64,000 bases of DNA from Vicinamibacteria bacterium (GCA_963806705.1 CAWDZE010000012.1:234826-298825); one strand, 5' to 3'; shown: positions 1 through 11,869, numbered from the stretch's first letter. Numbers and translations: made by a program. Notes: generated by a model not told the origin, from the letters alone.

Positions 1-41
1 CACGGCACCAAGAAATCGACGACGGGACAGCGGGAGTGTCA

Positions 42-1403
42 TCAGGAATCTCCAAGCCGGCGCATGAGCCGCCCGGCGGTTGTGACGATGCGCCCTTCGA
101 CCGACGGGTCAAACGGTCCGGGACGGCCGTAGTAGATCATCGCGCCGCCGCCCTCGTAGCCGCCTTCCTGCAGCACCCGTCCCGAAGGGATGTAGCACGA
201 GACGTCGTTGCAGTACGCCGCCACCCACAATTGTGCGGAGCCGTGCTCGCGCCTCAGACGCAGAGCGTAGTCGGTCACGACTTCCCCACCGAGGGCCACA
301 AGGGTCAGCGCTCCAAGGCGCCAGATCTGGATGGGCTCGGCATGCGCGCGTTCGAGCGTGCCGTCGCGATTGAGGCGGTCGAGCATCAGCGTCGCGTGGC
401 GCCGGACGTAAACGTCCTGGGACTGCTGGCGCGCGAGCCATCCGGCCCGGTCGGGGACGTCGCCAAACGGCAACTCGACCAGTTCGAAGCCCGCGGAGAT
501 GTTGCCCTCGAGCGGGCGTGTACGGGCAATCGCAGCGGCGACAGCATCAGCCAGCGCGATCCCGTGCTGCTCGACCAGCGCCAGTGTCCCGCGAGGAGAC
601 GGGTTGACGTCGGCGCCGCAACCAGCCAGGAACATCGCCTGTGCTCCAGGGTAGCGCCGCTCGAGTTCGCCCTGCGCGACGCCGGCGTAGTCGCCGTGGA
701 ACTCGGTCATCGCGGCCTGCAGCGTCGTGTTGTGACACGCGAACCCGAACACGATGGCCAGGCTGCGACTGTCCGGTCCCATCACGCGCAGGACCGGCAC
801 GGCCTGGTCCACCGGGCCGGGCGGCAGGAACTGAGTTCGCCGGTTGGCGCCAAACGTCGCGCGGCCCTCGCCATATGTCACTTCGGCCGGTTCGAGCCGT
901 TCGAGCGCGGCGCCGACCAGCCGGGCAATCGTCGACTCCAGCGACGCGGTATATGCGGCAATCGCGCTGCGTTGAGCGGCGTCGAGGTCGTACGCCACCG
1001 ATAACTGGTCGTCGACCACGGGGCCGCAATGCGTGTGGCTGGCCGCCAGCATCCAGGCCTCGGTCTCGAGGCGGTGTGTGCGCGACAGCGTGGCGCCGAT
1101 GCGCTGGCGCATCGCAGCCGTGACACCGAGCAGGTCGACCGTGACCAGCGCGAAGCGCCGCCCGTCGCGCTCGAGGCCAAGCGCCTTGGCGTGAAGCGGC
1201 ATCGCCGTGCCGGTGGCAGCGTGCGTACGTGCCGCAAAACCCGCCATCCACAGCCCGGGTGCCGGCGTGATGTCGGCCGATGCGACGCCGGCGCGCCAGG
1301 CGGGCTGCGCGCGTACGCCCCGGGCGGAGGTGGCGGCAACCGCGGCGGCACGAGCGAGGAAATCACGTCGGGATAGCACCGTGGTGGATAGTAGCAACTT
1401 CAC
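42..1403 (-). CDS. Tat-exported neutral/alkaline ceramidase-like hydrolase
   Basis: ORF 42..1553(-). Probable GTG start at 1403, just before the twin-arginine motif SRRDFLARAAAV. The body (ADITPAPGLWMAGFA, ASHTHCGP) resembles non-lysosomal ceramidase-like proteins. The first ~50 codons of the track ORF read through a heptamer repeat and are discounted. Confidence 0.55.
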   Translation of the reverse strand: MKLLLSTTVLSRRDFLARAAAVAATSARGVRAQPAWRAGVASADITPAPGLWMAGFAARTHAATGTAMPLHAKALGLERDGRRFALVTVDLLGVTAAMRQRIGATLSRTHRLETEAWMLAASHTHCGPVVDDQLSVAYDLDAAQRSAIAAYTASLESTIARLVGAALERLEPAEVTYGEGRATFGANRRTQFLPPGPVDQAVPVLRVMGPDSRSLAIVFGFACHNTTLQAAMTEFHGDYAGVAQGELERRYPGAQAMFLAGCGADVNPSPRGTLALVEQHGIALADAVAAAIARTRPLEGNISAGFELVELPFGDVPDRAGWLARQQSQDVYVRRHATLMLDRLNRDGTLERAHAEPIQIWRLGALTLVALGGEVVTDYALRLRREHGSAQLWVAAYCNDVSCYIPSGRVLQEGGYEGGGAMIYYGRPGPFDPSVEGRIVTTAGRLMRRLGDS

Positions 1404-1413
1404 CTGGGAGGGT

Positions 1414-1483
1414 GATATACGATTGCAGATTGCAGATTGCAGATTGCAGATTGCAGATTGCAGATTGCGGATATGCGGATTGG
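1414..1483. repeat. Heptamer tandem array: 6 perfect GATTGCA units plus degenerate units
   Basis: Read directly: gatatac (gattgca)x6 gattgcg gatatgcg gattgg. It fills 70 of the 83 bp between divergent starts at 1403(-) and 1487(+). Confidence 0.95.
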
Positions 1484-1486
1484 CCG

Positions 1487-2827
1487 ATGCCCCATCGACG
1501 AGCGTTTCTGAAGGGCCTTGCGGGTACTGCGCTGGCGACGGCCGCCTCGTCAAGACGCGTAGCCGGCGCCAACGATCGCGTGCGCGTCGGCTTCATCGGC
1601 ATCGGATTGATCGGGCGGCGGCACCTCCTGGACTTTCAGGCGCAGGCGGATTGCGAAATCGCGGGGATCTGCGAGGTCTCGGATGAACGGCGGGACGACG
1701 GCGTCACGACCGCGGACAACCGGCCGGCGGCCTTCGAAGACTTCCGCCGGATGCTCGACCGGCCGGACATCGATGCCGTGGTCGTCTCGACGCCAGACCA
1801 CTGGCACGCCCTGATGACGATGATGGCGTGCGCCGCCGGCAAGGACGTCTACGTCGAGAAGCCCCTGACACATGTCCTCCGTGAGGGCGAGTGGATGGTC
1901 GACGCCGCGCGCCGTCATCGGCGCGTGGTCCAGGTTGGGACGCAGCAACGGGCGGGCGCGCACTACCAGCGCGCAAGACAGCTGCTGCGTCAGGGCCACA
2001 TCGGCGAGATCCGCGCGGCGCGCGTCAGCACGGCACGCAACATACTGCCGGGGTTCACCCTTCCGGTCGGCAAGCCCTTGTCGCCCGCGCAGTGGGACAT
2101 GTGGCTTGGCCCGGCGCCGGCGGTGCCCTACGAGCCCACGCGCGGGCTCTATCACTTCCGGTGGTTCTGGGACTATTCCGGGGGTCAGACGACGAACCTG
2201 CTGGCGCACGAGGTGGACATCGTGCAGTGGGTGACCGGCCAGGTGCCGCGGCGCGTCGCGGCGTTTGCGCAACGCCGGTCGCTCACAGGCATCGGCGAAA
2301 CCCCTGACCTCTTCGAGGGCATCTTCGAGTACCCGGAATTCCTGTTGAACTGGTCGAGCCGGGAAGTCGCCGCTGGCGGCCGTGACGGACTCGAGATCTA
2401 CGGCACCAAGGGCACGCTGGCCATCAACCGTCGTGGGTTCGAGATCCTGCCCGATGCGTTGCTGACGCCGGAGTCGCAGATTCCACGATTCACCGGCCCC
2501 GTGGCGGCCCCGGACACGCCGGCACCGCGATGCGAGGCAGTCAAGGATGTCGGGTACGAGCAGGTGCGCGACCAGTTCCGCCCGCACGTCAGGAACTTCC
2601 TCGACTGCGTGAAGTCGCGGCAGGCGCCGCTGGCCGATCTCGACAGCGCGCACCAGACGTCGATCGCCTGCCATCTGGCCAACATCGCCATGCGCACGGG
2701 CCGCGTGATTCAGTGGGATCCGGCCGCCAACGACATCGTAGGCGATGCAGCCGCGTCTGCCCTGCTGACCAAGACGTATCGTGCGCCGTGGGACCAGCAA
2801 CTGCGCGCCGCCATGGGGTCGGCGTGA
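1487..2827 (+). CDS. Tat-exported Gfo/Idh/MocA family oxidoreductase
   Basis: ATG at 1487 precedes the Tat motif HRRAFLKG. Rossmann motif VGFIGIGLIGRRH and the EKP motif (YVEKPL) are present. The stop overlaps the next start (TGATG at 2825-2829). Confidence 0.85.
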   Translation: MPHRRAFLKGLAGTALATAASSRRVAGANDRVRVGFIGIGLIGRRHLLDFQAQADCEIAGICEVSDERRDDGVTTADNRPAAFEDFRRMLDRPDIDAVVVSTPDHWHALMTMMACAAGKDVYVEKPLTHVLREGEWMVDAARRHRRVVQVGTQQRAGAHYQRARQLLRQGHIGEIRAARVSTARNILPGFTLPVGKPLSPAQWDMWLGPAPAVPYEPTRGLYHFRWFWDYSGGQTTNLLAHEVDIVQWVTGQVPRRVAAFAQRRSLTGIGETPDLFEGIFEYPEFLLNWSSREVAAGGRDGLEIYGTKGTLAINRRGFEILPDALLTPESQIPRFTGPVAAPDTPAPRCEAVKDVGYEQVRDQFRPHVRNFLDCVKSRQAPLADLDSAHQTSIACHLANIAMRTGRVIQWDPAANDIVGDAAASALLTKTYRAPWDQQLRAAMGSA

Positions 2828-3894
2828 TGACGACGCCGACACGTCGTGAGTTCCTCTCTGCCATAGCGGCCGGGGCAGCGTTGCCCGTAAGCCGCCAGGC
2901 CAGTGCCTCCAGAACGCATATGTGCCTTGCCTACACGTCGTTTGCCGTCCGCATGCTGCAGGGACGCGACATCCTGAAGAGCACGGCCGCGGCCCTTCCA
3001 GCTGAAGGCCTGCTGGATCTCACCGAGCGGTTCTGGGCCGGAGGCGCCCAGGTCGATCTGTCGCAACTGGAATCGCACGATCCGGCCTATCTCGCGCGCG
3101 TGCGTGCACGAGCCGAGAAGGCCGGGCTGTGGCTCGAGCTGTCGGTGCCATCGAAGTATCTCGAGAGCGCCGATGCCTACGCCCAGATGGCGGGCGTCGC
3201 GCAGGCGCTTGGCGTCGATCGCATTCGTGTCGCGCTGCTCTACGGCCGGCGCTACGAGAGCTTTGCGACGCTGGCCGCCTGGACGGCACACGACGGCAGG
3301 TGGCGGGCTCAGCTTGCGGCGATCAAACCTGTGATCGAGCGGTACCCCGTCCGCGTGGGCATCGAGAACCACAAGGACTTCACGTCGCGCGAGCTGGCCG
3401 AGCTGCTGACCTCGCTCGGCAGCGCGAAGATCGGCGCGTGCGTGGACTTCGGCAACAACATCTCGCTGCTCGAGGATCCGCTCGACACGGTCCGCACGCT
3501 GGCGCCGTTTGCGGTGACCACGCATCTCAAGGACATGGCGGTCCGGCAGTCGCCTGACGGCTTCGAGCTCTCGGAAGTGCCGCTCGGCGAGGGCATCGTG
3601 CCGCTGGCCGAGGCCATCAAGCTCGTGAAGGCCGCGCGTCCCGATGCGCGGCTGGCACTCGAGATGATTACGCGCGATCCGCTGTCGGTCCCGTACCGGA
3701 CCGACAAGTACTGGATCGCCGTCAACCGTCCATCGCCAGAGGCCCTGGCGCGCTTCGAGGGCGACGTGCTTGGCAAGGCATGGAAAGACCCGTTGCCGCA
3801 CATCTCGCAGCTGACCAAACCGCAGCAGGTCGAGGCGGAAGACGAAAACGTGCGCCGAAGCGTCAAGTACGCGAAGGACGTGTTGCACCTGTAG
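2827..3894 (+). CDS. Tat-signal xylose-isomerase-like TIM-barrel protein (sugar phosphate isomerase/epimerase family)
   Basis: ATG at 2827 with [16 protein letters not shown]. Family-like segments include IENH, DFGN and HLKD. Translationally coupled to the upstream oxidoreductase. Confidence 0.8.
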
Positions 3895-3914
3895 GGGCGC
3901 ACCAGGAGTTCCCA

Positions 3915-4685
3915 TTGTCGGTTCTTGATTCCTTTCGTCTCGACGGCCGCCGCGCGCTGATTACCGGCGGCAGCCGTGGGCTCGGCCGGGTCATGGCCCA
4001 GGCGCTGGCCGAGGCCGGAGCGGATGTCGCCATCACCAGTCGATCCGAAGAAACGGCCGCCGCGGCGGCAGCGGAAATCGCCGGCGCCACGGGCCGCACG
4101 GTGCGCGGCTATGCCGCCGACGTGCAGGTCAGCCAGGACATCACGCGGTTGGCCGAGGAGCTCCAGACGACCTTCGGTTCGGTGGACATCCTCGTCAACA
4201 ATGCCGGCATCAACGTCCGCGGCCCCAGCGACCAGCTGGCCGAGGCCGACTGGGACGCCGTCATCGACACCAACCTGAAGGGGCCGTTTCTCTGTGCGCG
4301 TGTGTTCGGCCCGCTGATGGCGGCGCGCGGTTGGGGGCGCGTGATCAACCTCGGATCGATCCTCAGCGTGATCGGACTGCCGGGACGGGCGCCGTATGCC
4401 GCCTCGAAGGCAGGCATCGTCAATCTCACACGCGTGCTGGCGCTCGAGTGGGCGGACCGCGGCGTCACGGTGAACGCCATCTGCCCCGGGCCGTTTGGAA
4501 CCGAGATGAACAAGCCGCTGCTCGAGGATCCCGAGAAGTTCAAGGCCTTCGTCTCGAAGATCCCGATGGGGCGCTGGGGCGACCTGCACGAGATCGCCGG
4601 CGTCGCCGTGTTCCTCGCCTCTGATGCGTCATCGTTTGTCACCGGCAGTTCGGTGTTCGTCGACGGCGGCTGGACGGCGCAATGA
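3915..4685 (+). CDS. SDR family oxidoreductase (gluconate-5-dehydrogenase-like)
   Basis: TTG start at 3915 lies 6 nt after an AGGAG. Motifs: [17 protein letters not shown]. Overlaps the next gene by ATGA. Confidence 0.85.
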
Positions 4686-4996
4686 TCGTCAAGGCGTTCC
4701 GCATGCGGGTGCACCCGGCTCACGTCGCCGAGTACGAGCGGCGCCACAATCCAATCTGGCCCGAGCTCGAGGCGGTGCTCAAGGCGCATGGCGTCCGCCG
4801 CTATTTCATTTTCATCGACGACGCCACGGCCGATCTGTTCGCCTACGCGGAAATCGAGAGCGAAGAGCGGTGGCAGGCCATCGCCCGCACCGAGGTCTGC
4901 CAGCGGTGGTGGCAATCGATGCAAGCCTTGATGCCGTCACACGACGACGGCAGCCCCGAGAGTCGCGGCCTGCGACAGGTGTTCGAGTTGGGCTAA
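4682..4996 (+). CDS. rhaM: L-rhamnose mutarotase
   Basis: 104 aa. Near-collinear with E. coli RhaM as I remember it ([29 protein letters not shown]). Confidence 0.9.
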
Positions 4997-5050
4997 CCGA
5001 AGGGCATCGGCCGCCTGACCCCCACTGCTCTCCTGCTCCTGGGGGTTGCC

Positions 5051-5109
5051 GCGCGCAATTGTCGAGAGGCTCAGCTTCCGTAATCGTCGATCTTCAATCG
5101 TCAATTCAC
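5051..5109. repeat. Heptamer-family element (GCGCGCAATT core plus AATCGTC-type units)
   Basis: gcgcgcaattgtcgag ... aatcgtc gatcttc aatcgtc aattcac. The mltF-like stop (tca at 5101-5103) lies inside it. Confidence 0.8.
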
Positions 5110-6585
5110 AGCGCCCTTGGCCTGCGCCCTCTCTTTCATCTCATCCATCGTCAGCGAGTACGCGACGTAGTACTTGTAGATGTTGCTGACGTAAGTGACC
5201 GTCTCCCGGCCAACCTTCTCGGCCACCACGCGTTCGACGTTGTTGAACCAGATATTGGGGTTCAGGCCGCGCTTTTCGGTCTCCTGTCGCAAACTGCGAA
5301 TCCGCCCTGGACCGGCGTTGTACGCCGCAAAGGCCATCAGGCCCTTGTTCACGCGGTCCATCTCGTTACCCGGGAAGTACGTGTCGATCAGGCTCCGCAT
5401 GTACTTCACGCCGCCCCGGATGTTGGGCTCCAGCTGCTTGATGTCGCCGACCTGCAGCTGCTTTCCGGTGGCGGGCATGATCTGCATCACCCCGATGGCG
5501 CCCACGTGGCTCTTGGCCTTGTGGTCGAGGCGCGATTCCTGATAGCCCTGCGCGATCATCAGCAGAAAATCCATGTCGTACTCGTCGCCGTACTTGCGGA
5601 ACAATTCGACCAGCGCGCGAAACTTCTTGAGTTCCGCTTCCGACGTCGCGTCCTTGACGAACTTGGTGCTCTGCAGGTACCTGCGGAACTGGATGTTGCC
5701 AAACTCCGTGCCGGACCCGAACTTCGCGACGCCCTCGTTGAGTTGCGCCAGCAGCTTCGGACTGTTCTTGCGCACGACCCAGCCCAGGTCTGCGCCCTCG
5801 CGCAACGCAATCTTGTCGTGCACCGTGATTGACGGCAGCACCATCTTCCAGAACTTCGCGGCGAAGTCCAGGACGACCGTAGCTTTGATCAACCCTGCAT
5901 TGACCATCTCGAGGATGTCCTCGTCCTCGAGCGCTGGCGGCAGCGCCTTGATCGTGACCGGCGCCTTCCCGCTCTTCCTCAGCGACACATTGAGCGCCTC
6001 CAGACTCTCCGCGTAGATGCTCGGCACCCGAACACCGACAATCTTGCCCGACAGGTCCTCCTTCGTCGTCACAATCGAAGCGCCCGGGCCGGTGACGAGC
6101 ACTTCCGTCACTCCACGCCAGGTGGGCACCGTGAAGTCGACCAGTTTCCGGCGTTCCGGGGTGATGGTGACCGGCGCGGCGATCATGTCGCCACGGCCCT
6201 CGATGAGCGACTCGTACAGCTGATCGCGCGAGGTCGGGATCATCACCACGTTGATCTTTTCCGACGGACCCGTCTTCAGCTGGGCGTTGATCACGGTCTC
6301 GAGCTTCATGCCCGCCTCGTACGCGAGACCTCGCTGCACCCCCTTGTCGATGAAATAGTGCGTCTTGTTGTACGGCGTGAGCAGCCGGATGAGCCGGCGC
6401 TTGATCATCCCGTCGAGGTCGCCAGTGAAGGGCCGCTCGACGACTACGAGGTCGCTTGTCGGCGCGGCGGGCTTTGCCGGAGCGGGCTTTGCCGGGGCGG
6501 CCTGCGCCGCGGCGAGCCGCGGCAGCGCGAGCCCGAGTGCGGCGACAATGAACAGGGATGCGCAACGGCTGAGCTGGATGGTCAT
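5101..6585 (-). CDS. MltF-like lytic transglycosylase (solute-binding domain plus SLT domain)
   Basis: Start at internal ATG 6585 (MTIQLSRCASLFIVAALGLALP signal peptide). C-terminal SLT motifs: QESRL, GVMQIMP, AYNAGPG. Confidence 0.8.
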   Translation of the reverse strand: MTIQLSRCASLFIVAALGLALPRLAAAQAAPAKPAPAKPAAPTSDLVVVERPFTGDLDGMIKRRLIRLLTPYNKTHYFIDKGVQRGLAYEAGMKLETVINAQLKTGPSEKINVVMIPTSRDQLYESLIEGRGDMIAAPVTITPERRKLVDFTVPTWRGVTEVLVTGPGASIVTTKEDLSGKIVGVRVPSIYAESLEALNVSLRKSGKAPVTIKALPPALEDEDILEMVNAGLIKATVVLDFAAKFWKMVLPSITVHDKIALREGADLGWVVRKNSPKLLAQLNEGVAKFGSGTEFGNIQFRRYLQSTKFVKDATSEAELKKFRALVELFRKYGDEYDMDFLLMIAQGYQESRLDHKAKSHVGAIGVMQIMPATGKQLQVGDIKQLEPNIRGGVKYMRSLIDTYFPGNEMDRVNKGLMAFAAYNAGPGRIRSLRQETEKRGLNPNIWFNNVERVVAEKVGRETVTYVSNIYKYYVAYSLTMDEMKERAQAKGAVN

Positions 6586-6783
6586 AGGCGTTCGTCGGAC
6601 GTCGGATTCCTCGTTTACGCTGGCAAATGACAGCTGGAAGGGCCAGCTCGGCAACAATCTTAACAAGGATTTAACACGGATCGCCATTTCTTCGCATCTG
6701 AGTGCCACACGCGCGTTGGCCGTGCAGCACTCGGCGGTCACCGCGGTGCCTGGAGGGGGACGCCGTCGTCGATCTCAGGCGCC

Positions 6784-7806
6784 CTAGACACGGCTCTCAC
6801 CTACCGACACGAGAATCTTGCCTACCGCTTGCGGCGCGGCGGCCCATCGCCCCAGCATCGCCGGCGCCTCGTCGAGCGATACGCGGTGCGTGACGAGCGC
6901 GCGTGGATCGACCGCTCCCGATTCAAAGAGGGCGACCACGGCCGCCAGCTCGTCGGTCGCGTTGCGCGAGCCGAGGATCGCCACTTCCTTCAGCACGATG
7001 AGCCGCGCTTCGAGCGGCACCTCGCCTTTCAGCCACCCCACGCAGCCGATACGTCCGCACGGCGCCACCAGGTCGAGCGCGAGGCGGTACGTGGAAGGCG
7101 ATCCGACCGCCTCGATCACCACGGAGGGACCGTCGCCGCCGGTGAGGCCGTACACCTGTCCGGCCACGTCACCTCGCCCGTCGACGACCTCGGCGGCGCC
7201 TAGTCGACGGGCCTGCTCGAGCTTGTGCTCGTCAAGGTCCAATCCGATGACTCGCGCCCCTCGTGCCGCCGCGGCGGCAATGGCGCCGGCGCCAACGCCG
7301 CCACAGCCGAGCACGAGCACGGTGTCCGAGGACGTGACCTCCGTACGCCTGACCGCGTGCATGCCGATCGAGAACGGCTCGACCAGCGCGAGCACATCGA
7401 GCGGCAGCGACGACGACGGCACGAGGCGGCCCGCCGGCACCGCGGCGAACTCGGCCAGCGCGCCGTCACGCTGGACGCCAAGCGTCTGGTTGTTCCGGCA
7501 GGCATTGGGGCGGCCCAGCCGGCACGCAGGGCACGCCCCGCAGTTCTTGTAAGGACTCACGGCCGCCGCAACGCCCCGCCACGCACTGTCGACGCCGGGT
7601 CCGAGATCGACGACCCGGCCGGAGATCTCGTGACCGATAACGCGCGGATATTCGACCAGCGGGTTGCTGCCGAGGAAGGCGCTCAGGTCGGTGCCGCACA
7701 GGCCGGCAAAGGCCACCTGCAGCAGCACTTCGCCGGGACCGGCGACCGGATGCGCCCGCTCCACTATCAGCGCCAGCCCTGGACCATCGATTGACAGCGC
7801 CTTCAT
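6784..7806 (-). CDS. Zinc-dependent alcohol/polyol dehydrogenase (MDR family)
   Basis: Motifs GLCGTDL, GHEISG, a CGACPACR structural-zinc loop and LVLGCGGVG. Confidence 0.85.
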   Translation of the reverse strand: MKALSIDGPGLALIVERAHPVAGPGEVLLQVAFAGLCGTDLSAFLGSNPLVEYPRVIGHEISGRVVDLGPGVDSAWRGVAAAVSPYKNCGACPACRLGRPNACRNNQTLGVQRDGALAEFAAVPAGRLVPSSSLPLDVLALVEPFSIGMHAVRRTEVTSSDTVLVLGCGGVGAGAIAAAAARGARVIGLDLDEHKLEQARRLGAAEVVDGRGDVAGQVYGLTGGDGPSVVIEAVGSPSTYRLALDLVAPCGRIGCVGWLKGEVPLEARLIVLKEVAILGSRNATDELAAVVALFESGAVDPRALVTHRVSLDEAPAMLGRWAAAPQAVGKILVSVGESRV

Positions 7807-8006
7807 TCAGGGCGCTCCGCCAGCCGGGCGCGGAGAATCCGTGCGATGTCGTCGAGCGCCTGAACGATGCGATCGGACACCGCCGTGCGTTCCTCGGCGG
7901 TGAGCGCCGTGAGCAGGCTGTGCATTTCGGGAGTCCGGCTGCGGACGCCCAGCGAAATCAGCCGGCCAGACGTGTCGTCGAGATACCGCTCGTGTTCGAT
8001 GACCAT
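7803..8006 (-). CDS. Small hypothetical protein (67 aa), translationally coupled to the dehydrogenase
   Basis: ATG preceded by GAGGG. High GC3 codon pattern. ATGA overlap with the downstream ADH start. No family recognised. Confidence 0.4.
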   Translation of the reverse strand: MVIEHERYLDDTSGRLISLGVRSRTPEMHSLLTALTAEERTAVSDRIVQALDDIARILRARLAERPE

Positions 8007-8065
8007 CGTGACCCTCGATTCTATGCCCGCCGAGCGCGACTTTGTGATATCTCCTGCCCACCCAC

Positions 8066-9208
8066 ATGATCAGGCTTTTCACCGGCTTTCTGCTGGTGGC
8101 GCTCGGCCTCCAGCTTCCTTCGACCCCTGACGTGGCGTTCCGCACGGTCGATGTCCAGCGGGACTGGGGCGTCGTCTACGCCGTCCGGGTCGCCGACGTC
8201 AACGCCGACGGCCGGCTCGACATCGTGGCCATCAACCCGTCGCAGCTCGCGTGGTTCGAAAACCCGGGCTGGCACCGGCACGTCATCGTGGACGGCGCCG
8301 TGCCACGCGACCACGTGACCATTGCCGCCCATGATGTCGACGGCGACGGCCGCGTGGAGATCGCGCTCGGCGCGGGATGGAATCCTCGCAACACCGCCTC
8401 GGGCGGCGAACTGTTTCTCGCGACGCGCAGCGAGGCCAGCGGCACCAGACCCTGGACACTTGCGCCGCTTGGCGCGGAGCCGACGCTGCATCGCATCCGC
8501 TGGGCGACGATTGACGGAGGCGCCCGCCTCATCGTCACGCCGCTCCATGGGCGCGGCACCGCGGCGCCCGCGTGGGACGGCGTCGGCGCGCGCGTGTTCG
8601 CGCTCGCCCCTCCCGTCGCGGACACGAAGGACTGGAGGACCGAAGCAATCGACGACACGCGCCACATCCTCCACAACTTCCTCGTCGTGAACTTTGACGG
8701 GCAATCCGGCGACGAGCTCGTTACGGCCAGCCGCGAAGGATTGACGCTGCTCACGCGCGGACCTGGAGGCGCATGGTCGCGTCGACTGCTCGCCGAAGGC
8801 GCGCCAGGGGAGGTAGCGCTGGGACGCGTCGGAAAGCGCCGCGTGTTCGGGACTGTCGAGCCATGGCACGGCACCGCCGTCGTCAGCTACATGGAAGGGG
8901 CGGACACCTGGACGCGCACGGTCATCGACGAGGCGATCACCGGCGGGCATGCGGTGGCCTGGGCCGACTTCGACGGCGACGGCGACGACGAGCTGGTCGC
9001 GGGCTGGCGGGACGGCGCCTACGGGCTCGCGCGCTACCGTCTCGGCAACGATGGCCGGCTGGCAGCCCGCCACGTGATCGACCGCGGCGTCGCGGTCGAG
9101 GATCTGGTTGTCGCGGACATCAACGCGGACGGCCATCCCGACATCGTCGCGGGCGGCCGGACCACGGGCAACATCCGCCTCTTCATCAACGAGCGGGCGG
9201 GACGGTGA
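8066..9208 (+). CDS. FG-GAP/VCBS repeat protein with signal peptide
   Basis: Repeated DxNxDGxxDIV-type motifs: VADVNADGRLDIV, HDVDGDGRVEIA, FDGDGDDELV, ADINADGHPDIV. Confidence 0.7.
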   Translation: MIRLFTGFLLVALGLQLPSTPDVAFRTVDVQRDWGVVYAVRVADVNADGRLDIVAINPSQLAWFENPGWHRHVIVDGAVPRDHVTIAAHDVDGDGRVEIALGAGWNPRNTASGGELFLATRSEASGTRPWTLAPLGAEPTLHRIRWATIDGGARLIVTPLHGRGTAAPAWDGVGARVFALAPPVADTKDWRTEAIDDTRHILHNFLVVNFDGQSGDELVTASREGLTLLTRGPGGAWSRRLLAEGAPGEVALGRVGKRRVFGTVEPWHGTAVVSYMEGADTWTRTVIDEAITGGHAVAWADFDGDGDDELVAGWRDGAYGLARYRLGNDGRLAARHVIDRGVAVEDLVVADINADGHPDIVAGGRTTGNIRLFINERAGR

Positions 9209-9213
9209 CCGAC

Positions 9214-10284
9214 ATGGTGACGAGAAGGCAGTGGCTGCAAGCGGTTTTAGCAGCGATGGCGATGCACCCCGCTTTTGAAGGCGACGGACACGCGGGCACG
9301 ACATCCACGGCCGAGATCACGAGCGATGGACTGGTCGATCTCCAGGTGAACGGGTTTGCCGGGGTTGACTTCAATGACCCGGCGACCACCGTGGACCAGG
9401 TGTCGGCCGCAGCCGCGGCCATGCGCGCCACCGGCGTGACGTGCTTTCTCGCGACGCTGATTTCCGCGCCGCTCGATCGCTTCAGCGCGTGCGCAAAGAC
9501 ATTGTCGCGGTCGACTGAGCCGGCGGTGGCCGGACTCCACATGGAGGGTCCCTACATCTCGCCCGAAGACGGCGCGCGGGGCGCGCACCGGCGCGAGGAC
9601 ATCTCAGCGCCCACGCTCGACGACTTCAGGCGCCGCCAGGAGGCGGCCGGCGGCCGCATTCGCCTTGTGACGATCGCACCCGAAGTGGCGGGCGCGCTGC
9701 CGTTGATCGAGCAACTCGTCAAAGACGGCCTGCGCGTGGCCATCGGCCACACGGCCGCCTCGCCTCAACAGGTGCGCGAGGCGGTGACGGCCGGCGCGAC
9801 GATGTCGACCCATCTTGGCAACGGGTGCGCGCAGATGCTGCCGCGGCATCCGAATTTTGTGTGGGAGCAACTCGCCGCCGACGAGCTGGTGGCCGGCCTG
9901 ATCGTGGATGGGCACCACCTCCCGGCGGCCACGGTCAAATCCATGGTGCGGGCCAAGACTCCGCTGCGCACGATTCTCGTCACCGATGCCACGACCGCGG
10001 CCGGCCGTCCGCCAGGCGACTACATGCTGGGCAGCCTCCGGGTGCACCTTGACGAGACGGGACGCGTGGCCGTGCCTGGCCAGCCGAACCTGGCGGGGTC
10101 GGCCCTGTCGATGGACCGCGCCATCGGCAACACCGTGCGATTCACCGGCCTTCCGCTGGCCGACGTCCTCGCGATGGCCTCGACGACACCGGCGCGCTAC
10201 CTGGGGGTCAAACCAAGGGGACGGATCCAGGCATCCTGGGATTCGGCGGCATCGCGCTTCACAGTTCTGCGCATCGACGACTAG
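9214..10284 (+). CDS. nagA: N-acetylglucosamine-6-phosphate deacetylase
   Basis: DLQVNGFAGVDFND matches the mononuclear E. coli-type QxNG motif. Also GLHMEGPYIS, IGHTAA and VTDAT. The start could instead be GTG 9205, overlapping the upstream stop. Confidence 0.85.
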   Translation: MVTRRQWLQAVLAAMAMHPAFEGDGHAGTTSTAEITSDGLVDLQVNGFAGVDFNDPATTVDQVSAAAAAMRATGVTCFLATLISAPLDRFSACAKTLSRSTEPAVAGLHMEGPYISPEDGARGAHRREDISAPTLDDFRRRQEAAGGRIRLVTIAPEVAGALPLIEQLVKDGLRVAIGHTAASPQQVREAVTAGATMSTHLGNGCAQMLPRHPNFVWEQLAADELVAGLIVDGHHLPAATVKSMVRAKTPLRTILVTDATTAAGRPPGDYMLGSLRVHLDETGRVAVPGQPNLAGSALSMDRAIGNTVRFTGLPLADVLAMASTTPARYLGVKPRGRIQASWDSAASRFTVLRIDD

Positions 10285-10481
10285 AGCTTGTGAGCCTCGA
10301 GACGGGCATCTCACGCAGTTCTCTGTGGAGGCCCCAACAGGCATGCGATACCTCAAACCGGCAGTCGTTCTTTTCGTCTGGACAGCTCTTTCAGGCACGG
10401 CGCTGGCGCAACAACCACCCGGAAGCGGCCGTACGGCGCTGTGGACCAGCGTCGACGCCGGGTGATGCTAGAGTTCACCGG

Positions 10482-11456
10482 ATGCGGACACGGCGGCTTG
10501 GGCACTCGGACCTGCAGATCACCGTCATCGGGTTTGGCGCGTGGGCGATCGGCGGCGGCGACTGGCTGTTTGGCTGGGGGCCGCAGGACGACGCCGACTC
10601 GGTCGCGGCGATTCGGCGCGCGATCGATCTCGGCATCAACTGGGTCGACACGGCTGCGGTCTACGGGCTCGGACACTCCGAGCAGGTCGTCGCGCGTGCG
10701 CTGGCGGAGATCCCGGCGGGCCGGCGCCCGTACGTCTTCACGAAATCGAGCCTGGTCTGGGACAAGGACCGCCAGGTCTCTCACAGCCTGCGCGCCGATT
10801 CGATCAGGCGCGAAGTCGACGGGAGCCTCCAGCGCCTCGGCGTCGACGTCATCGACCTGTATCAGATCCACTGGCCCCGCTGGGGCAGTTCGCCGGCGGG
10901 GTGGGACCCGGGCCCGATCGAAGAAGGCTGGCAGGCGATGGCCGACCTTCAGAAGGCTGGCAAAGTCCGCTACATCGGGGCGTCCAACTTCACGCGCGAC
11001 GATCTGGCCCGCGCCGATGCGGTCGCGCCGGTCACGAGCCTGCAACCGCCCTACTCGCTGTTGCGGCGCGAGGCCGAGACGGACCTCTTTCCCTGGTGTC
11101 TCGAGCACGGCACCGGCGTGATCGTCTACTCCCCGATGCAGTCCGGGCTGCTCACCGGCACGATGACGCGAGAGCGCCTGGCGGCGCTGCCCGACAGCGA
11201 CTGGCGGCGGAGAGGCAAGTTCTTCCAGGAGCCCTACCTGACGCAGGCGCTCGCGCTGGTGGACCGCCTGAAGGCGGTGGGCGCGCGACACGGGCGCTCA
11301 CCCGGCGAAGTGGCGATTGCGTGGACGCTGCGTCATCCCGCCGTCACCGCCGCGATCGTCGGCGCCCGGCGTGCCGACCAACTCGACGGCATCGTTGGCG
11401 CGGCCGATCTCGAGCTCAGCCACGCGGACGTCGCGTTGCTCGAGCGCAGCAATTGA
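10482..11456 (+). CDS. Aldo/keto reductase
   Basis: Internal ATG at 10482 (MRTRRLGHSDLQITVIGFGAW). Motifs: DTAAVYG, LYQIHWP, IGASNF. Confidence 0.85.
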   Translation: MRTRRLGHSDLQITVIGFGAWAIGGGDWLFGWGPQDDADSVAAIRRAIDLGINWVDTAAVYGLGHSEQVVARALAEIPAGRRPYVFTKSSLVWDKDRQVSHSLRADSIRREVDGSLQRLGVDVIDLYQIHWPRWGSSPAGWDPGPIEEGWQAMADLQKAGKVRYIGASNFTRDDLARADAVAPVTSLQPPYSLLRREAETDLFPWCLEHGTGVIVYSPMQSGLLTGTMTRERLAALPDSDWRRRGKFFQEPYLTQALALVDRLKAVGARHGRSPGEVAIAWTLRHPAVTAAIVGARRADQLDGIVGAADLELSHADVALLERSN

Positions 11457-11471
11457 CGATTGCAGATCGAG
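11451..11471. repeat. Heptamer-family short array (aattgac gattgca gatcgag)
   Basis: Read directly. The AKR stop TGA (11454-11456) lies inside it. Confidence 0.8.
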
Positions 11472-11869
11472 CCGTGTTCGTGACGCTCTGGGAGGCCGCA
11501 GGCGTCCTGGCCGGCGGGCCGGTCGCAGCGCCGGACACCGGTCCTCGCCGCTCTCGACCGCTGGCCGCTTGGGTCGCCCCGCGCGATCGGGCCGGGGCTC
11601 AGGCCTGCGCTGGGTCCCACAGCTGCGGGCCGGTGTCAGGCGACCCAGGTCGGCGCTGCTCCAACGGCCCGGCGGCCAGGCCACCCGTGGCCTGCCAGCG
11701 CGCAGACACATGACACGGCGGTGCTCCTCGAGCCGACCAAGGCTGCGGGTGTCTCGCAAAGCAGCCGTGTTCGTGCACCGTCAGTTCCGGCTGCGGCGCG
11801 AGATACCCGCAGCCGTAGGTGCCCTCTCCAACCGCCTCTCGCCCGCTGGCTGTCATCCCTGCCGCCTGT

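Follow-up and report, generated by a model that had tools for sequence, protein, structure and literature searches.

The stretch analysed here, 64,000 nucleotides from a Vicinamibacteria bacterium (GCA_963806705.1, CAWDZE010000012.1:234826-298825; this whole stretch is referred to as the window), contains on its plus strand, at 1487-4996, four genes for a Gfo/Idh/MocA dehydrogenase (Gfo), a xylose-isomerase-like TIM-barrel enzyme, a short-chain dehydrogenase/reductase (SDR), and the L-rhamnose mutarotase RhaM. The first three constitute a conserved operon specifying two enzymes with signals for twin-arginine translocation (Tat) and a cytoplasmic SDR. On balance, it appeared probable that this trio oxidises and reworks a sugar in the periplasm, the product then being taken up and reduced in the cytoplasm by the NADPH-type SDR. 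Judged from the orthologous loci, RhaM is a recent local addition in the close relatives of the window and does not define the substrate.

Relatives of the TIM-barrel gene were sought by scanning 185,579 species genomes for a motif, and 183 places encoding such a protein were found. The best 80 loci were compared, and their neighbourhoods were rebuilt by calling open reading frames (ORFs), by tblastn with the window proteins, and by Pfam spot checks. Neighbours were counted only at loci with enough flanking DNA, hence the differing denominators below. Single-linkage clustering of the ORFs merged Gfo, TIM barrel, and SDR through long read-through ORFs in high-GC DNA (the G+C content of the window is about 68%) and served only to find other recurrent neighbours. 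The 80 loci were mostly from Vicinamibacteria, Blastocatellia, Bryobacterales, and other Acidobacteriota, with one planctomycete and one myxobacterial bin among them. From its homologues and related loci, the window was assigned to the genome of an uncultured member of the Vicinamibacteria (Acidobacteriota).

A Gfo orthologue was detected by tblastn directly upstream of the TIM-barrel gene at 51 of 72 loci, and directly downstream an SDR orthologue, 63-90% identical to that of the window, is present at 51 of 70. The full trio was found at 34 of 63 loci belonging to several acidobacterial classes. Estimated by the ends of the tblastn matches, its genes are mostly separated by short gaps, and some overlap slightly. 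The gene beyond the SDR is on the opposite strand in most loci and, since this next gene is usually convergent, the operon appears to end after the SDR. RhaM follows the SDR at three of 48 loci, all of them from the nearest relatives (L003-L005), while Gfo, TIM barrel, and SDR are still 59-78% identical in the 45 operons without it. The initial annotation had joined all four genes into one module and had named the neighbourhoods of orthologues as a place to check it; among the 80 loci the Gfo-TIM pair proved to be conserved, and RhaM did not. A literature search for the Gfo-TIM-SDR trio in Acidobacteria retrieved nothing.

In the window, the genes for Gfo (1487-2827, 446 aa; PF01408, PF19051, and PF22725) and the TIM barrel (2827-3894, 355 aa; PF01261) are connected by the sequence TGATG, in which one base is common to the Gfo stop codon TGA at 2825-2827 and the TIM-barrel ATG at 2827. 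The SDR gene (3915-4685, 256 aa; PF13561 and PF00106) starts with a TTG 20 nt past the TIM-barrel stop codon, preceded by AGGAG 6 nt upstream, and its own stop codon is overlapped by the ATG of the RhaM gene (4682-4996, 104 aa; TIGR02625) in an ATGA. All four family assignments were borne out by Pfam and NCBIfam. The arrangement described initially, four genes on the same strand with these two overlaps and two twin-arginine signals, was confirmed by the sequence and its translations.

The N-terminus of Gfo, MPHRRAFLKGLAGTALATAASSRRVAGA, is followed by NDRVRVGFIG. It begins with MPHRRAFLKG and runs to VAGA, the signal of the TIM barrel ends with ASA, and both are textbook twin-arginine signals. 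The signal peptides are predicted to be encoded at 1487-1570 (motif HRRAFLK, cleavage after AGA) and 2827-2907 (motif TRREFLS, cleavage after ASA). An RR-x-hydrophobic motif is present in 53 out of 55 Gfo orthologues and in 70 out of 74 TIM-barrel orthologues, R6 and R7 of the latter being invariant, and the canonical form RRxF[LIVMF] in 46 and 62 of them, respectively. At least some of the RR-motif exceptions look frameshifted, such as those in L003 and L034, in which genes next to them are interrupted by frame changes as well. Among 57 SDR orthologues the canonical motif was found in none. Because they are kept across the Gfo and TIM-barrel orthologues and never occur in canonical form in the SDRs, the Tat motifs are not a matter of chance. 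TatC is encoded in the genome. The view of Gfo and TIM barrel as an exported, translationally coupled pair was upheld. SDR and RhaM carry no signal peptide and start straight at the folded domain, which argues for a cytoplasmic location of both and against a single periplasmic module of four genes, as proposed in the initial annotation. Co-export of the SDR as a Tat hitch-hiker was considered, and nothing supports it.

A search for gene fusions yielded no TIM-SDR protein but four proteins combining Gfo and TIM barrel, each of about 800 aa and each a singleton. The four proteins were taken as indel artefacts, at least one and probably all of them being derived from long-read metagenome bins with frameshifted neighbours. 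In the assembly containing the window, many TonB-receptor genes on several contigs are split across frames, and the same applies to genes in the related long-read bins L003, L005, L008, L010, and L011. Since these assemblies carry indel errors, apparent fusions and truncations need caution.

Gfo, annotated as a sugar dehydrogenase of the NAD type, combines its Tat signal with a Gfo/Idh/MocA Rossmann domain and a C2-type C-terminal domain. The best NCBIfam model is BT_2158_fam glycoside 3-dehydrogenase (NF058561), matched with 131.4 bits over profile positions 28-251 only. A profile built from 13 orthologues reached 134 bits with AL3 of Alistipes (8tdf/8tdh) and 95 bits with the next structure. 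Likewise, the AlphaFold2 (AF2) model of Gfo (pLDDT 75) has its best full-length match in AL3 (TMq 0.67-0.68, all others at most 0.63), which is therefore the nearest solved structure in sequence as well as in fold. As published, the sugar pocket of AL3 contains Arg192, Trp195, Asp248, and His252 (PMC8121099; bioRxiv 10.1101/2024.03.25.586180). When Gfo was aligned to 8tdf, Arg192 and His252 were matched by R184 and H241, both invariant, and Asp248 by an Asn, N237, which is invariant in the Gfo family; an Asn-x3-His pair is also found in the glucuronide 3-dehydrogenase P2B11. By tblastn, the genome was found to encode about 30 Gfo/Idh/MocA paralogues.

The systems BT2156-BT2160 of Bacteroides thetaiotaomicron and AL1-AL4 of Alistipes process glycosides stepwise by oxidation, elimination, hydration, and reduction (PMC8121099; bioRxiv 10.1101/2024.03.25.586180). 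As in these systems, a Tat-signal Gfo of the PF19051 type is located beside a metal-dependent TIM barrel resembling sugar-phosphate isomerases, and no cofactor-supplying partner is encoded nearby. In AL3 and BT2158, NAD is tightly bound and recycled on the 3-keto-sugar product (PMC8121099; bioRxiv 10.1101/2024.03.25.586180), and BT2158 bears a Tat signal, as does the glucose-fructose oxidoreductase (GFOR) of Zymomonas (PMC8121099). In contrast to the BT and AL systems, the present family has no SusR-type regulator and, in most loci, no second Gfo, and the trio has a conserved cytoplasmic NADP-type SDR instead. GFOR and the aldose-aldose oxidoreductase of Caulobacter are periplasmic Tat-exported Gfo/Idh/MocA enzymes, too, and need a second substrate for recycling their tightly bound cofactor (cited in PMC8121099). 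The window Gfo shares this export, but its profile matched these enzymes with 47-66 bits compared to 134 for AL3, and they oxidise C1 of free aldoses without a TIM-barrel or SDR partner. The characterised enzymes nearest to the pair act on 3-keto sugars in pathways of oxidation and elimination (PMC8121099; PMC10628242; bioRxiv 10.1101/2024.03.25.586180), which bears out the initial annotation in this respect.

For the TIM barrel no NCBIfam match was obtained. Residues E180, H182, D207, H233, and E279 are invariant, and this E/H-D-H-E pattern resembles the Co/Mn site and the catalytic Glu of the 3-keto-glucoside lyases AL1 and BT1 (PMC8121099; bioRxiv 10.1101/2024.03.25.586180). Searches against solved structures gave a best E value of 8e-4 with the single sequence and of 2e-8 with a profile, the latter to an uncharacterised Planctomyces protein. 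The AF2 model (pLDDT 84) shows the standard barrel fold of this superfamily. Foldseek and VIA-align placed it in the superfamily and in no subfamily, and in the ESM Atlas it met only generic 'sugar phosphate isomerase' clusters. Among 1.84 billion representatives, its relatives at E<=1e-30 form a discrete group of 353 clusters at 50% identity. By these comparisons the TIM barrel is a separate, unstudied subfamily, which keeps the metal site of the superfamily. Its pairing with an exported dehydrogenase would be understandable, because such chemistry needs a carbonyl next to the abstracted proton. A paralogue with 28-30% identity and the Tat signal ITRRDFIS is encoded elsewhere in the same genome (C24:4000-18000, L096; 6161-7237, minus strand) with no Gfo gene adjacent. 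Near to it, at 10461-11312 on the minus strand, lies a gene for a short exported protein with a Tat motif, which may be another TIM-barrel protein.

About one quarter of the listed TIM-barrel homologues carry the JGI name '3-oxoisoapionate decarboxylase', and this enzyme, OiaC, is said to share the Pfam superfamily of the TIM barrel. That the TIM barrel is OiaC, and the operon a pathway for branched sugar acids of the D-apionate type, was nevertheless considered highly improbable. The JGI names are automatic, and NCBIfam, as mentioned, contains no model matching the protein. ApnO, the partner of OiaC and a relative of ketol-acid reductoisomerase, is found in a cluster with LerK, EryH, and EryI (PMC13753588), and no genes for any of these four were seen at the window locus. 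Furthermore, Gfo and TIM barrel are exported, whereas nothing in the apionate paper locates its pathway in the periplasm (PMC13753588). The label was therefore set aside.

The catalytic tetrad of the SDR consists of N120, S148, Y161, and K165. Its glycine motif (TGGxxGLG) includes a basic residue, and strand beta-2 is followed by S42-R43, features that assign it to the NADP(H) type in the classification of classical SDRs. The simplest reading of these features is a cytoplasmic NADPH-dependent keto-reductase, probably acting on a keto-sugar or keto-acid sugar; reduction is favoured because the cofactor motifs are of the NADP type. Among solved structures, the SDR was matched best by entries labelled gluconate 5-dehydrogenase, with KduD and FabG next in rank. 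The specific NCBIfam cut-offs are not reached (PRK08213, 244 versus 279 bits; KduD TIGR01832, 228 versus 339), and only two loose subfamily models pass theirs.

Variant layouts of the cassette were informative with respect to the exported dehydrogenase. In four Bryobacterales genomes (L073-L075 and L077), the order is SDR, Gluconate_2-dh3 small subunit with a Tat motif, GMC flavoprotein, major facilitator superfamily (MFS) transporter, and Tat-signal TIM barrel. One Acidobacteriaceae genome has SDR, MFS transporter, Tat-signal Gfo, and Tat-signal TIM barrel. Between these two layouts, the SDRs are 74%, the MFS transporters 64%, and the TIM barrels 61% identical. Since Gfo and the GMC flavoprotein occupy the same slot among the same partners, the exported dehydrogenase can be regarded as a swappable part of one cassette. 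This exchange supports the idea that Gfo supplies the oxidised sugar to the TIM barrel.

The Bryobacterales operon, exemplified by L077:2741-8032, is an acidobacterial counterpart of the GlycDH operon of Agrobacterium tumefaciens. The latter encodes the FAD-dependent glycoside 3-dehydrogenase GlycDH, a TAT small subunit, the beta-eliminase AtOGE, the 2-hydroxy-3-keto-glucal hydratase AtHYD, and a Gfo reductase, and performs oxidation, elimination, hydration, and reduction of glycosides (PMC10628242). An exported flavoprotein dehydrogenase, a TIM barrel, and a cytoplasmic reductase are common to both operons. The window differs by having Gfo instead of the flavoprotein, one TIM barrel instead of two, and an SDR instead of a Gfo as reductase.

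Taken together, the following course of events would be consistent with the data. Exported via Tat in folded form with its nicotinamide cofactor, Gfo would act in the periplasm and oxidise a secondary hydroxyl group, either of a sugar or of the sugar moiety of a glycoside. The Tat-exported metal-dependent TIM barrel would act on the resulting keto-sugar by removing a proton adjacent to the carbonyl group, with beta-elimination of a substituent and/or hydration, or possibly isomerisation, as the outcome. The product, probably an acidic keto-sugar, would then be taken up and reduced by the NADPH-type SDR in the cytoplasm.

Several features of related loci hint at an acidic sugar as the imported product. 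The MFS transporter is an anion:cation-symporter-type protein (TIGR00893, 309 bits). Downstream of the SDR gene, Blastocatellales carry genes for a GntP permease and for an equivalog of L-arabinonate dehydratase, another Blastocatellia bin carries genes for a sugar-acid dehydratase (MR_MLE) and a GMC protein, and a Pyrinomonadaceae bin carries another MFS gene. The replacement of Asp248 of AL3 by Asn points in the same direction. It is possible, although distinctly less probable than the general scheme above, that the trio represents a route of its own in Acidobacteriota, not described so far, by which acidic sugars or their glycosides are used, with a swappable dehydrogenase, a new class of keto-sugar lyase or isomerase, and an SDR dedicated to the reduction of keto-uronates or keto-aldonates.

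A route without glycoside cleavage is the main rival explanation. A free aldose or aldonate would be oxidised in the periplasm to a keto-aldonate, the TIM barrel would be an epimerase or isomerase, uptake would occur by an anion transporter, and the SDR would resemble ketogluconate reductases. The transporter and SDR evidence is accommodated about as well by such a route: the best SDR structures are labelled gluconate 5-dehydrogenase or KduD, related loci harbor GntP with L-arabinonate dehydratase, the MR_MLE dehydratase, or the symporter-type MFS protein, and the Bryobacterales flavoprotein comes with a Gluconate_2-dh3 small subunit. A glycoside-specific partner such as DUF1080 is also missing. 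A precedent is provided by Pseudomonas, in which gluconate and 2-ketogluconate are handled by gad and kgu genes (KguT, KguE, KguD). However, KguE is cytoplasmic in contrast to the exported TIM barrel, and PA2260 (1yx1), which we take to be the Pseudomonas KguE, was not detected by the TIM-barrel profile. The best NCBIfam match of the GMC protein is pyranose oxidase and not gluconate dehydrogenase, and the nearest characterised relatives of Gfo oxidise C3 of glycosides. Overall, the free-aldonate route was considered unlikely.

Oxidation and reworking of a sugar in the periplasm by Gfo and TIM barrel, followed by reduction through the SDR, remained the preferred reading, but a number of observations weigh against it. 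With 131 bits, Gfo is far below the BT_2158 equivalog cut-off of 750 and is not an equivalog; Trp195 of AL3 is not kept but replaced by Leu. The TIM barrel is of another subfamily and showed no sequence match to AL1/BT1, AtOGE, or AtHYD in single-sequence and profile searches. Its fold matched Art22, ketose 3-epimerases, IolE, AsbF, and AtHYD equally well, with Z scores of 20-23, AtHYD (8ro4, Z 20.6) not standing out among them. Because members of the superfamily score equally, the fold indicates no specific reaction. The trio is not accompanied by a DUF1080 partner (lyase/hydratase), a glycoside hydrolase, or a conserved transporter. The hints to acidic sugars come from a minority of the loci, and the name gluconate 5-dehydrogenase was given by depositors to what presumably are structural-genomics entries and is unconfirmed. 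Of five genomes with TIM barrel and SDR but without an adjacent Gfo gene, one contains a 59% identical Gfo orthologue elsewhere, and the other four hold only paralogues of 42-46% identity. In addition, an exported Gfo with bound cofactor needs a periplasmic oxidant, and the scheme offers no candidate for regenerating the cofactor if the keto product leaves for the cytoplasm.

The initial annotation had assumed an extracytoplasmic oxidation of L-rhamnose, another deoxy-sugar, or a rhamnoside, the SDR and RhaM then handling rhamnose. By sequence criteria, RhaM is a bona fide L-rhamnose mutarotase: it exceeds the TIGR02625 cut-off (134.5 versus 99.6 bits), and residues 1-103 align full length to E. 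coli YiiL (RhaM; 1x8d; E 1.7e-37). Its gene is translationally coupled to the SDR gene in the window and is kept in this position in the three related genomes mentioned above, and the published 3-keto route tolerates varied anomers and sugar types. However, RhaM is absent from the great majority of the orthologous operons, although these are otherwise well conserved, and the SDR is of the NADP type, with no rhamnose or fucose dehydrogenase by name among its top 60 structure matches. Unlike the E. coli gene, that of the window is not associated with isomerase, kinase, and aldolase genes but follows the SDR among genes for exported enzymes. No rhamnosidase gene is adjacent. In Pfam and NCBIfam searches, RhaA/B/D, RhaEW, or LRA1-4 locus genes were not found within 1-11500, in line with the earlier remark that classical rhamnose kinase and isomerase genes are not adjacent. 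In the whole genome TIGR02632, the RhaD-ADH fusion, had no hit above cut-off, and one GH78-like gene is present elsewhere.

A second, more divergent RhaM-like gene, of which only the first 61 profile positions match, is located in the same genome on contig C1 (C1:36000-50000, L095; 5618-6085, minus strand). It is surrounded, at about 1975-9842, by LutB/C-like genes, an FGGY kinase gene, genes for SorC-type and GntR-type regulators, and a gene for an SDR 47% identical to that of the window. This C1 locus is probably the catabolic locus of the genome for deoxy-sugars of the rhamnose/fucose type and, as the likelier place for such a function, argues against the rhamnose assignment of the window operon. 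Together with the SDR structures labelled gluconate 5-dehydrogenase or KduD, and with the accessory organic-anion transporters and aldonate dehydratases pointing to acidic sugars, these results make the proposal of a rhamnose or deoxy-sugar substrate improbable. Rhamnose may be relevant for the version of the operon in the lineage of the window; it does not define the conserved module. The substrate should not be read from one neighbouring gene, as illustrated by RhaM.

What the present case contributes is the conserved cytoplasmic SDR partner, the exchange of Gfo and GMC dehydrogenases within one cassette, and the hints to acidic sugars. Acidobacteriota rank among the most abundant bacteria in soil, and what is assumed of their carbohydrate metabolism comes largely from counts of glycosidases. 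If the preferred reading is correct, the recently described non-Koshland pathway would extend from gut Bacteroidota and Agrobacterium to soil Acidobacteriota, and members of two unrelated enzyme families could replace each other as the exported dehydrogenase of a single cassette. The three proteins of the trio would be a compact set and, like the small TIM-barrel subfamily, open to direct expression and screening. A distinct route for acidic sugars, if it exists, would imply polymer breakdown by soil bacteria without classical glycosidases.

Scans for promoters and terminators and folding of the region past RhaM were uninformative. The gap of 83 bp between the Gfo gene and its divergent neighbour contains a perfect array of GATTGCA heptamers at 1414-1483, which ends 3 nt before the Gfo ATG. 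The neighbour at 42-1403 on the minus strand, with an inferred GTG start at 1403, encodes a ceramidase-like protein (PF04734 N-terminal domain, 63.7 bits) with the Tat signal SRRDFLA. This gene heads a divergent operon, which continues just outside the window with genes for a Tat-signal DegT aminotransferase and a TonB-dependent receptor and is syntenic in the nearest relatives only (L003-L007). Consequently, the statement that no transporter is adjacent holds for the operon itself and not for this divergent unit. TonB receptors are adjacent at 15 of the 80 loci, which is at most about twice the background to be expected with about 30 such genes in 6 Mb. This adjacency was not clearly above background and was dropped as a sign of a large substrate.

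The divergent operon was traced over L094:7393-11232 on the minus strand and 42-1403 of the window; NagA is encoded at about 9300-10284. The aminotransferase of the DegT/DnrJ/EryC1 family (PF01041, 322 bits) is encoded at L094:11522-12868 on the minus strand of contig C12, just upstream of the window. Its twin-arginine signal reads MTLPLSRRRFLG, and the motif is kept in the L004, L006, and L007 orthologues. A literature search retrieved periplasmic Tat-dependent transaminases for pyoverdine maturation only (PMC6206403, PMC9305348), and an exported sugar aminotransferase dependent on pyridoxal phosphate beside an exported sugar dehydrogenase is unusual. The ceramidase-like protein, the Tat-signal DegT protein, the TonB receptor, and NagA may serve in the handling of an acylated amino sugar in the lineage of the window.

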